A stretch of DNA of 64,000 nucleotides, taken from the IMG/VR virus record IMGVR_UViG_2695420423_000004; one strand, written 5' to 3'. The notes beneath the pieces are model-generated. The model had not been told where the DNA came from. It saw nothing but the letters and a program-made list of their open reading frames with translations, and did no database searches. This document shows, piece after piece, positions 58,495-60,976 of the stretch. The position numbers and the translations under genes were made by a program. Origin of the DNA: a virus (Duplodnaviria; Heunggongvirae; Uroviricota; Caudoviricetes). Every line of letters starts with the position of its first letter. The stretch's first letter is position 1.

Positions 58495-58683
58495 TAAATA
58501 TATTATTTTTAATCTGAAATAATTGACAACTGACAAGTGACTTCAGTCAGAATCATCACATGCCCGGTACGGATGGATCCCTTTTCAAATATTCCATGGA
58601 CGGCACAGTCTGAGTACCGGGCGCTACCTTCAGTTGTATTGCTAAGCCGCCGCTGGTGGCTTTTCTTTTTTGTAGGGGGCGCT

Positions 58684-59325
58684 ATGGATAAGAAAATATG
58701 CGTTGTTTCGATGAGCGTCGGCAAACCGGCGTCAATGACTGCTGCATGGATCAACAATGAGCTAATAATGGCTGAGCGGACCAGCTACCCTGAACGCCGC
58801 CGCGATATGGAACTCCAGCTGCTGCGCGAATTGCGAGAAAAAGAGGAAAAGGGTTTTATCGTGCTGGTGGAAGAGGAAAACAGCTTTATTACTGGTCGAG
58901 TTGGCCAGCGTGTAAGGTTGCGCGATCCCTTCATGAACGGCAGGCCGGTACTAATTGAGGCAATGCAGATTTATAAGGAGCTGGAACGCCAGAAAGCAAT
59001 CAAGTTACCGCGCAAGGAATCCGGCAAATACATCCTCCACCAAAGCATCTTCGATTCCGAACACGATAAAAAAGGCGATGAATTTTTCAACATCAACTGG
59101 AGCGAAATAACGACAGAGCATGTTCTGACGTTACTATGTTGCTTTGCGACGGAATACAACAACGTTGCCAGCGCCGACTACATCAGGGCAATGGCTGGAG
59201 AAGTTGAGGCACGCCAGGAACCATCGTTACTAAGCCCTCTGATTAACATAATTCGCGGCACCCAAACGCTGGCACAAAAACAGGTGCCTAAGGGAGTATT
59301 AACAGGAAAAGGAAATTATCTATAA
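58684..59325 (+). CDS. mat: Mat-like particle maturation protein (by position)
   Basis: Track ORF 58537..59325; ATG at 58684 (MDKKICVVSMSV...) with AGGGGG upstream. Confidence 0.55.
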   Translation: MDKKICVVSMSVGKPASMTAAWINNELIMAERTSYPERRRDMELQLLRELREKEEKGFIVLVEEENSFITGRVGQRVRLRDPFMNGRPVLIEAMQIYKELERQKAIKLPRKESGKYILHQSIFDSEHDKKGDEFFNINWSEITTEHVLTLLCCFATEYNNVASADYIRAMAGEVEARQEPSLLSPLINIIRGTQTLAQKQVPKGVLTGKGNYL

Positions 59326-59381
59326 ACGTCAATGCATTAGGGTATACTTCTCCGTAGAACTATAAGTAAATGGAGTAAGTA

Positions 59382-60686
59382 ATGAGCGAGTATATAGAAA
59401 TTGCCTATGCAGCGGCTACACATAGGCTGTGCTTTCTTACAGGCACTGGATTTTCAAAGGCTGTTTCTGATGATAAAGCCCCAAGTTGGCAATCTTTATT
59501 GGAGCAACTGTGCGGTTTATTGAAGGATGGTGACTCACTCAAAGAGGAATTATTTCCTGATGGAAAAGCAAAAGACCTTAGCCTTGAAGAAGCTGCTCAG
59601 GTTATTGCACTAAAATTTATACTTTCGGGGAAAAATATTTACCAAGAGATTGAGAAAATCATAGCCTCAATCGAACTTGATCCATCAATTGAATATATTC
59701 AAGACTTTTTCAAAGAAAACACATTTAAAGTAATTACGACAAATTATGACAAGTTAGCAGAAAAGCTGGCTGGAGAGAATCGAACGTGTACAATCACCCC
59801 CGGCCTGCCAATTCCAAAATATAATTGTGAGGTTAAAGTCTACCATGTTCACGGTTCTATAGACTCCCCATCAGACATGGTTGTTACTAGCGAGGATTAT
59901 TTCAGATTTATAAATGGTAATTCTTACTTTTCTAATAAACTAAGCACAGTTCTACATGAAAACACTATTGTTATCCTTGGCTATTCTCTAAGTGACGCGA
60001 ACCTAAAGGCTATTATAAATGAATATAAGGTATTTTCACGGGACAACGTAATGTCCTCCAATATTTTCCTTGTTTCCCGAGGGGAACTATTGCAACCTAT
60101 TAAAGATTACTATTTTTCCTGCTATGGGGTTAGGGTTATAGATAAAACAGAGGTATCTGATTTCTTTAGAAAACTTAACGATAAAATTCCAGAAGCAAAA
60201 AAAATAAAAGACAAATTGAGGCACTCAATCAAATCGGTAATAAAAAACGGAAGAGAGTATAAAATAGAGTTCTTGAAGCTAGAGGATTCTTTTTATCATA
60301 TCATTTCCTCCATTTCATCATCTGGATATAGCTGGAATAATGAAAATGTATTAAATGTTTTTTGTAATATAATAGATAAAAAAATAGAACTTACTAAAAA
60401 GCCTGGCGCATGGGAGCAGTATGAACACCTGGCAAAATGGCTTATTTATTTCGGTAGTTTATTTGAAGTAAAAGGAACCAATTTTGAGAAAAAATACATA
60501 CATGCGGTTGAACACTCAATGACTTATATGAATAAACCTTACGAAACAGGCTACTCATGGCTAGCATATCTAGCCTGGAAAACAAAATGGCCTTCACTGA
60601 CAGCATCTAACCGCTCTCTTATTAAGAATGAGATGGAAGATATCCCGCTACAACAGATTCACGATATTGTATCTAAGTTTATATAG
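59382..60686 (+). CDS. SIR2-like (SIR2_2-type) domain protein with uncharacterised C-terminal domain; candidate anti-phage effector
   Basis: 434 aa; FLTGTGFS (18-25), ITTNYD (118-123, Asn121), YHVHGS (154-159, His157), ILGYSLSD; AT-rich; GGAG site; occupies the P1 res-mod position. Confidence 0.8.
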   Translation: MSEYIEIAYAAATHRLCFLTGTGFSKAVSDDKAPSWQSLLEQLCGLLKDGDSLKEELFPDGKAKDLSLEEAAQVIALKFILSGKNIYQEIEKIIASIELDPSIEYIQDFFKENTFKVITTNYDKLAEKLAGENRTCTITPGLPIPKYNCEVKVYHVHGSIDSPSDMVVTSEDYFRFINGNSYFSNKLSTVLHENTIVILGYSLSDANLKAIINEYKVFSRDNVMSSNIFLVSRGELLQPIKDYYFSCYGVRVIDKTEVSDFFRKLNDKIPEAKKIKDKLRHSIKSVIKNGREYKIEFLKLEDSFYHIISSISSSGYSWNNENVLNVFCNIIDKKIELTKKPGAWEQYEHLAKWLIYFGSLFEVKGTNFEKKYIHAVEHSMTYMNKPYETGYSWLAYLAWKTKWPSLTASNRSLIKNEMEDIPLQQIHDIVSKFI

Positions 60687-60695
60687 TATATTTAT

Positions 60696-60722
60696 CTCCG
60701 GCCTAATCTCCCTAGGCCGGAG
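60696..60722. terminator. bidirectional terminator between the SIR2-like gene and the lxc-like gene
   Basis: Perfect 10-bp stem ctccggccta / taggccggag with a 7-nt loop. Confidence 0.6.
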
Positions 60723-60727
60723 AGTTC

Positions 60728-60976
60728 TTAATCAGCATTCAGAAGCAATGCGTTATCTATGATGATCTGCTCCCATTCTTCGAATGCCCGGTCGCGGACG
60801 CCCTGGGGAACACTGTTTGTTTTGAAATCGACGACCGTCCGCCATTTCCCGTCCGGACGGTACATGCGCAGAGCTTTACTTCCCCCTTCCCTGCGCACCT
60901 CAACGTTATGCTTGTCAGCAAACTCTTGTAATGCTCGTAGCGTCCCATGCTTTACTGTGTAGTATCGCTTTTTCAA
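60728..60976 (-). CDS. small protein (lxc-like by position and size)
   Basis: 82-aa ORF, 4-nt overlap with the upstream gene; downstream of the darB-like gene as lxc is in P1. Confidence 0.45.
   Translation of the reverse strand: MKKRYYTVKHGTLRALQEFADKHNVEVRREGGSKALRMYRPDGKWRTVVDFKTNSVPQGVRDRAFEEWEQIIIDNALLLNAD

Follow-up and report, generated by a model that had tools for sequence, protein, structure and literature searches.

In phage P1 the interval between the genes mat and lxc holds res and mod of the EcoP1I restriction–modification (R-M) system. What takes their place in a P1-like phage-plasmid that has neither gene, and what might it do there? The question is raised by a 64,000-nucleotide stretch of DNA (hereafter the window) from the IMG/VR virus record IMGVR_UViG_2695420423_000004 (Caudoviricetes). 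An earlier inspection of its letters (the sequence-only reading) had described a single 434-residue open reading frame (ORF) between mat and the lxc, ulx and darB genes, and this arrangement is borne out. The gene lies on the plus strand at 59382..60686, from an ATG start to a TAG stop at 60684-60686, and its product comprises an N-terminal SIR2_2 domain (residues 1-254; 59382..60143) and an all-α, HEAT/ARM-like domain that is a putative sensor or regulatory module (residues 255-434; 60144..60683). On balance we favour the interpretation that this is a one-protein anti-phage abortive-infection system, in which a SIR2 NADase is gated by a family-specific, infection-sensing α-solenoid. A role in defence and NADase chemistry both appear more probable than this scheme as a whole, and direct sensing of a protein less probable.

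The identity of the N-terminal domain is clear. Pfam SIR2_2 (PF13289) matches residues 117-253 with an E-value of 2e-23 and a score of 83.4 bits against a cutoff of 24.5, the alignment spans profile positions 3-141 of 141, and no other SIR2 family is reported by Pfam. Ten divergent members of the family score 66-95 bits with the same profile. All four hallmark motifs are where the sequence-only reading had placed them: GTGFS at residues 21-25 (with the GxG at codons 21-23), TTNYD at 119-123, HVHGS at 155-159 and ILGYSLSD at 198-205. The catalytic pair that it had singled out, Asn121 (codon 59742-59744, followed by Asp123) and His157 (codon 59850-59852), stands up to alignment. Residues G21/G23, N121/D123 and H157 are invariant in 31 close relatives, and across 20 sequences, reaching down to 24% identity, neither TTNYD nor H157-G158 varies, and G21/G23 show at least 90% conservation.

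The predicted structure is consistent with this assignment. In the AlphaFold model (pLDDT 81.6, pTM 0.79) residues 1-253 adopt a seven-stranded Rossmann SIR2 fold. A family profile compared with all PDB sequences matched DSR2, ThsA and KomC, the matches being limited to residues 51-257. Foldseek comparison of the full model with the PDB likewise returned DSR2, ThsA and KomC as matches to the SIR2 core only, with no match for the whole architecture, and the same model gave nothing significant against the viral structure library BFVD. Bonhomme et al. (2024) describe immune-type ‘SIRim’ domains by a GxG motif, an xxNxD motif, a catalytic His, the absence of a zinc-binding Cys tetrad and at least seven strands. 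The protein has the motifs and the seven strands, and its Cys residues (17, 44, 136, 149, 247 and 328) form no CxxC motif, hence no zinc-binding tetrad.

The RefSeq/NCBI pipeline names this product ‘SIR2 family NAD-dependent protein deacylase’. That name probably misstates the activity, because this is an immune-type SIR2_2 domain and the zinc Cys tetrad, used by classical deacylating sirtuins for substrate binding, is absent. Placement among the classical sirtuin deacylases was tried and rejected, there being no CxxC or zinc-ribbon Cys4 arrangement and no Pfam match other than SIR2_2.

The remainder of the protein is of a different kind. The AlphaFold model contains an all-α domain at residues 258-419, and the region as a whole (residues 255-434) can confidently be modelled as a HEAT/ARM-like helical solenoid. 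The C-terminus had been described as Lys-rich, devoid of recognisable motifs and unlike a SLOG domain, and on each count the description holds, with 13.3% Lys in the final 180 residues, no match to any Pfam family or PDB sequence, and a predicted fold that is entirely α-helical. A Pfam OTU match to residues 272-340 (E=0.014-0.064) lay below the cutoff, was seen in one of 20 members, and was discarded as noise. When a profile of the C-terminal domain was compared with 1.84 billion (1.84e9) representatives, it retrieved only SIR2 fusions, in proteins of 406-480 residues, and no proteins of the size of DSR2. The domain thus keeps exclusively to this family. Its conservation is lower than that of the SIR2 domain (mean majority frequency across the family of 0.67 versus 0.79), and in close relatives it contains an invariant aromatic and polar cluster composed of W344, Q346, Y347, W353, S392, W393, Y396, W399, W403, N410 and R411.

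Among proteins of known structure the closest to the SIR2 core is DSR2 of Bacillus subtilis (profile E=5.5e-11 over residues 51-257; Foldseek E=1e-10), which is also encoded by a single gene and also has an N-terminal immune-type SIR2 NADase followed by all-helical repeats. DSR2 has been solved in complex with the phage tail tube protein. The two proteins differ greatly in length, DSR2 having ∼ 1000 residues as against 434 here, and the remark that the protein is far shorter than the DSR proteins is echoed by the NCBIfam equivalogs, with 30.3 bits for Dsr2 and 21.1 bits for Dsr1 against cutoffs of 1400 bits and with the SIR2 core only aligned. The TM-score to the query is ∼ 0.47 both for full-length DSR2 and for its isolated SIR2 domain; since it is the same with or without the remainder of DSR2, the match owes nothing to the C-terminal domain. 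With a SIR2 domain and a helical module in one gene, the protein may be regarded as DSR-like by its logic, a resemblance that does not extend to sensor homology.

ThsA of the Thoeris system (∼ 476 residues) is comparable in size and has a related SIR2 core, with 62 bits for the PADLOC ThsA1 profile and matches to structures 6lhx, 8bto and 7uxt. The PADLOC ThsA profiles align only to residues 117-236. ThsA itself binds its signal through a C-terminal SLOG (or Macro) domain and requires the TIR protein ThsB, whereas the present protein has an α-solenoid that matches neither SLOG nor Macro, and no TIR gene was found in the window or in nine other genomic contexts of the family. The best PADLOC match is the candidate PDC-S25 (84.6 bits), by its name a single-gene SIR2 candidate, to which the phage family phrog_2695 is comparable; however, these profiles have 517-531 positions, of which only positions 127-278, the SIR2 core, align. 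PDC-S25 is an unvalidated candidate, and the only mention of it found in the literature was incidental. An immune SIR2 effector domain is also common to the SIR2 type of LmuA, SIR2-HerA, KomC and the short-pAgo SIR2 proteins, but these act in multi-gene systems with an LmuB (SMC-like), HerA, KomB or Argonaute partner, and no such partner occurs here or in the other contexts. Membership of SIR2-HerA (Nezha) or PD-T7-2 was rejected, since there is no HerA-type ATPase neighbour and no PADLOC match to PD-T7-2. The latter is listed among SIR2 proteins by Bonhomme et al., and the Sir2 homologue of Vassallo et al. is most likely this HerA-linked PD-T7-2 and not the present family.

No known defence protein is matched over the full length: the PADLOC matches (PDC-S25, ThsA, LmuA, Dsr2 and generic SIR2) cover the SIR2 core only. 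The sequence-only reading had allowed for an undescribed architecture, and indeed no description of this SIR2 and helical combination was found in PADLOC (2023), Pfam (2025), NCBIfam (2026), the PDB (2026) or literature searches. The housing of a SIR2 effector and a sensor in one gene is not in itself a new principle.

The location of the gene provides a second line of evidence. P1 carries res and mod between mat and lxc, with an IS5 in mod, and P7 has the same res/mod arrangement. The inference that the present gene sits in place of this R-M system therefore agrees with both phages, and tblastx and blastn searches with the P1 res-mod region gave no match anywhere in the window. In phage SJ46 the slot holds, in the same orientation, a 373-residue RelA/SpoT gene (L025:2472-3593), the product of which is CapRel-SJ46, as judged from a full-length match of 833 bits to PDB 7ZTB. 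CapRel-SJ46 is a validated single-polypeptide defence protein, the C-terminal domain of which keeps the toxic N-terminal enzyme inhibited and also serves as the sensor of a phage capsid protein. It resembles the SIR2 protein in occupying the same slot in the same orientation and in joining an N-terminal enzyme to a C-terminal module in one polypeptide; the enzymes differ, being a toxSAS there and a SIR2 domain here, with unrelated folds and no sequence similarity. Other occupants are a 315-residue PIN_12 protein in phage JL22 (L026:1769-2719), the C-terminus of which matches the PADLOC candidate PDC-S34, and a divergent pair of EAL-domain and AraC-type HTH genes in phage Ro157c2YLVW (L027:1186-2760). 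Because CapRel-SJ46 shares the mat-lxc interval with the SIR2 gene, the interval looks like a defence hotspot of P1-like elements. No paper describing it as such was found in the literature.

The limits of the inserted DNA are sharp. The slot is bordered on the left by the maturation control gene mat (58684..59325, plus strand, by the RefSeq annotation of an identical plasmid locus, L001 5303-5944) and on the right by lxc, the modulator of C1 (60728..60976, minus strand). Upstream the order is c1, cre, ref, mat, and downstream, on the opposite strand, lxc, ulx, darB, as in P1. The backbones of P1 and RCS47 are homologous up to 59321-59325, where mat has its stop codon, and again from 60714 for RCS47 and from 60728 for P1, the latter exactly at the lxc stop. 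RCS47 represents the empty site, with a mat-lxc gap of 39 bp. By these limits the cassette, which is low in GC, measures ∼ 1.4 kb and has convergent stop codons at its two ends. It is thus cargo of the hotspot, with junctions at 59325 and 60714-60728, and in relatives the slot holds EcoP1I, EcoP7 or CapRel-SJ46. The AT-richness reported earlier is evident, the GC content of the SIR2 gene being 0.352 versus 0.485 for mat, 0.485 for lxc-ulx and 0.474 for the whole window.

Within the cassette, the gene is preceded by a specific leader of 56 bp (59326..59381, plus strand) that has no counterpart in P1 or RCS47 and contains the gene's own ribosome-binding site, as had been noted (GGAG, 59372-59375, 6 nt ahead of the ATG). 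Neither a σ70-like promoter nor a terminator was detected when looked for in this leader. The 3′ end of the cassette bears a hairpin with a perfect 11-bp stem (7 GC pairs) and a 7-nt loop at 60695..60723, the left arm of which falls outside the backbone homology. The sequence-only reading had called this a perfect bidirectional terminator. The inverted repeat is indeed perfect, and on the plus strand its tail, GTTCTTAA, makes it terminator-like; on the minus strand the flank is TAAATATA, which is not a T-run, so that a bidirectional function is not supported.

The family extends well beyond P1-like elements. With a threshold of E≤1e-3, 661 homologues were found. The majority are full length, which indicates that the ORF is not a chance one. 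The best 120 are 423-465 residues long and, bar one near-identical cluster representative, show 54-61% identity over 95-100% of the query. Nearly all of the named homologues among these 120 are from Gammaproteobacteria, with one from Delftia, and a length of 431-437 residues is kept across genera at 55-60% identity. In PHROGs the full-length family is phrog_7567, annotated as of unknown function. A search of the INPHARED phage collection for the gene gave no match; it is present in records filed as plasmids.

Ten genomic contexts were compared, among them the P1-like slot (the window and loci L001, L017, L018 and L021). Elsewhere the gene is found at the integrase end of a lambdoid prophage beside the host ccm genes in E. 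coli chromosomes, in a type I R-M/GmrSD island of Marinobacter, on a GmrSD-containing contig of Vibrio cholerae, beside an integrase fragment and an HNH gene, and, in two further cases, among ordinary genes. Two members are neighbours of Gabija-type pairs of an OLD-ATPase and UvrD, one in Pseudomonas putida (L013:3235-6328), where a DUF4917 gene is also adjacent, and one on a plasmid-like contig with ParA/ParE (L029:5385-8679). This adjacency in two distant members may be a coincidence within defence islands or may be a functional pairing. The absence of a TIR, HerA, STAND or Argonaute partner, previously claimed for the window, extends to the nine other contexts, as does the absence of an SMC neighbour. 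Moreover, all-against-all BLASTP comparison of the adjacent ORFs in five contexts revealed no similarity, every E-value being above 0.1. The gene is a standalone one that moves with mobile elements and defence islands.

The prevalence of the gene was determined in 5,426 complete E. coli genomes, 699 of which contain the P1-like lxc-ulx backbone. The window-type SIR2 gene is present in 70 genomes, where 71 of its 72 places are on plasmids and where at least 80% of its length is retained in 69 of the 70. A second SIR2 lineage is present in 64, including a further subgroup of 22 at 80-90% identity. Taken as 70 + 64 among 699, these figures mean that ∼ 19% of P1-like elements have a SIR2 cassette. 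EcoP1I-type res was found in 88 genomes (on plasmids in 57 of them) and CapRel-SJ46 in 14, so that SIR2 cassettes outnumber plasmid-borne EcoP1I-type res, which in turn outnumbers CapRel-SJ46. The textbook res/mod of P1 is found at a minority of mat-lxc loci.

The second lineage (P0006; L021:7001-8308, on a Logan ERR10789601 contig) occupies the same mat-lxc slot at 58% protein identity. Over the leader and the first three codons (window 59326-59391; L021:6945-7010) the two lineages have a single difference; past this point nucleotide identity falls abruptly to ∼ 65-70%, and the 3′ hairpins differ. The 56-bp leader is confined to P1-like loci, being absent from P1, RCS47 and the non-P1 homologues, and may act as an anchor for recombination when alleles are swapped, or may be a regulatory element under constraint.

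The window lineage itself comprises three alleles, with nucleotide identities of 100, 97.7 and 92.3%, and all of them lie at one locus. Pairwise dN/dS between them is 0.12-0.34, and the gene is under purifying selection. This, together with the retention of length in the carrier genomes and across genera and the invariance of the catalytic residues, effectively refutes a decaying or functionless passenger, an idea for which the high variability of the recombination hotspot and its empty state in RCS47 might have spoken. Replacements in the two most similar alleles are concentrated in the C-terminal domain, with 13 nonsynonymous and 3 synonymous changes as against 4 and 10 in the SIR2 domain, and they cluster at residues 320-341. 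At 60339-60404 (codons 320-341) the window allele differs from both others by N320D, N322K, N329D, E336D, K340E and P341S. These six differences cluster on approximately one helix pair of the C-terminal domain, where they may mark a patch that determines specificity or a short tract of recombination.

Together, these data can be accommodated in the abortive-infection scheme as follows. The P1-like phage-plasmid would carry the gene to shield its own lysogen from other phages. The N-terminal SIR2 domain, a predicted NAD+ hydrolase, would be off in uninfected cells, and the C-terminal α-solenoid, a fold of the protein-binding type, would serve as the regulatory or sensing module. Upon infection this solenoid would most likely bind a phage-made protein, with the SIR2 domain being freed or assembled as a result. 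The ensuing collapse of NAD+ would cause the infected cell to cease supporting phage growth. This view of the gating is taken because it is the logic of DSR2, with its tail tube complex, and of CapRel-SJ46, from the same slot.

Several points weigh against this scheme, the first being that its support is wholly computational. Expression is its weakest point: as the leader has no recognisable σ70-like promoter and mat no terminator after it, the SIR2 gene may be read through from the C1-repressed and late promoters of mat, and may be poorly expressed in the lysogen. The invariant aromatic residues of the C-terminal domain could form the wall of a small-molecule pocket, or an interface between domains, instead of a protein-binding face. 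In addition, the contrast in substitutions between the two domains, which in itself speaks for the scheme, rests on ∼ 30 substitutions, which are small counts, and the PADLOC set used was the 2023 version.

A more specific version of this scheme, which we put forward tentatively and at less than an even chance, is that of a minimal pattern-recognition NADase. The solenoid of ∼ 180 residues would itself bind a conserved phage protein and free the SIR2 domain, with no partner or second messenger, and P1-like elements would swap alleles. Such a swap, between alleles of 58% identity, would use the conserved 56-bp leader and the lxc stop as anchors, and would change the phages that are excluded. 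If this is true, the protein would be smaller than any other SIR2 sensor-effector known, and would offer a tractable model of SIR2 gating.

The alternative in which the protein is an orphan effector gated by a signal, in the manner of ThsA, appears unlikely. Here a small molecule (a cADPR isomer or a cyclic or modified nucleotide) would bind the C-terminal domain, its source being either the infecting phage or a sensor encoded at another place in the host. The ThsA profiles are among the best matches to the SIR2 core (62 and 53 bits), and the tight invariant aromatic and polar cluster could form a pocket. However, none of the ten contexts has a linked gene for a TIR protein, a cyclase or another maker of a signal, the predicted fold is an α-solenoid and not SLOG, Macro, SAVED or CARF, and a mobile cassette of a single gene needs to be self-sufficient.

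Just as improbable is that the gene serves the P1-like element in its lytic or late programme together with mat, in takeover, counter-defence or the exclusion of competitors, or that the product is a true protein deacylase as its RefSeq name has it. The arrangement with mat lends the former some weight, since the SIR2 gene follows it 56 bp downstream in the same orientation with no promoter or terminator detected between them, and in P1 mat is driven by a C1-controlled and a late promoter. Homologues are nevertheless found outside phage late operons, at the integrase end of a prophage, in R-M islands and beside Gabija, and the slot otherwise carries systems that protect the lysogen; the missing Cys tetrad speaks against a deacylase.

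Less probable still is an orphaned Lamassu effector, a SIR2-type LmuA left behind after the loss of LmuB and LmuC. The PADLOC LmuA profile (433 positions) is collinear with residues 20-219 at E=1.5e-13, but it goes no further than the SIR2 core, only the present family is retrieved from the 1.84e9 representatives with the C-terminal profile, and no SMC-like or LmuC-like neighbour occurs in the ten contexts, which include those of the most divergent members.

Two observations concern the flanks of the slot. A strong terminator-like hairpin with a T-run (AAGCCGCCGCTGGTGGCTT TTCTTTTTTG) is located at 58644-58662 on the plus strand, between the P1-style start of mat (∼ 58573) and the RefSeq-annotated start (58684). 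On the other side, plasmid pHNTH9F11-2 (L001:8033-10252), the SIR2 gene of which is 100% identical to that of the window, has no darB listed after ulx and has an IS26 transposase gene ∼ 1.5 kb downstream; the darB-type ORF of the window runs to at least 63951. Loss of darB from this plasmid is only suggested, as the plasmid gene table is incomplete; if real, it would mean that the anti-restriction gene beside the slot is not always retained.

SIR2 NADases are a major effector class of bacterial immunity, with relatives in eukaryotic immunity, and the well-understood single-gene SIR2 systems, DSR1 and DSR2, are proteins of ∼ 1000-1260 residues. A protein of 434 residues, with a sensor-like domain that occurs in no other architecture, would provide a compact system in which to study how SIR2 domains are gated. 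The mat-lxc hotspot, which has already yielded CapRel-SJ46, contains more uncharacterised cargo. P1-like elements are known carriers of resistance genes, and among complete E. coli genomes about one-fifth of these phage-plasmids have one or other of the two SIR2 lineages, more than have the textbook EcoP1I system. Overall, the gene is likely to shape the phage susceptibility of clinical and livestock E. coli, an effect that would be relevant to phage therapy.

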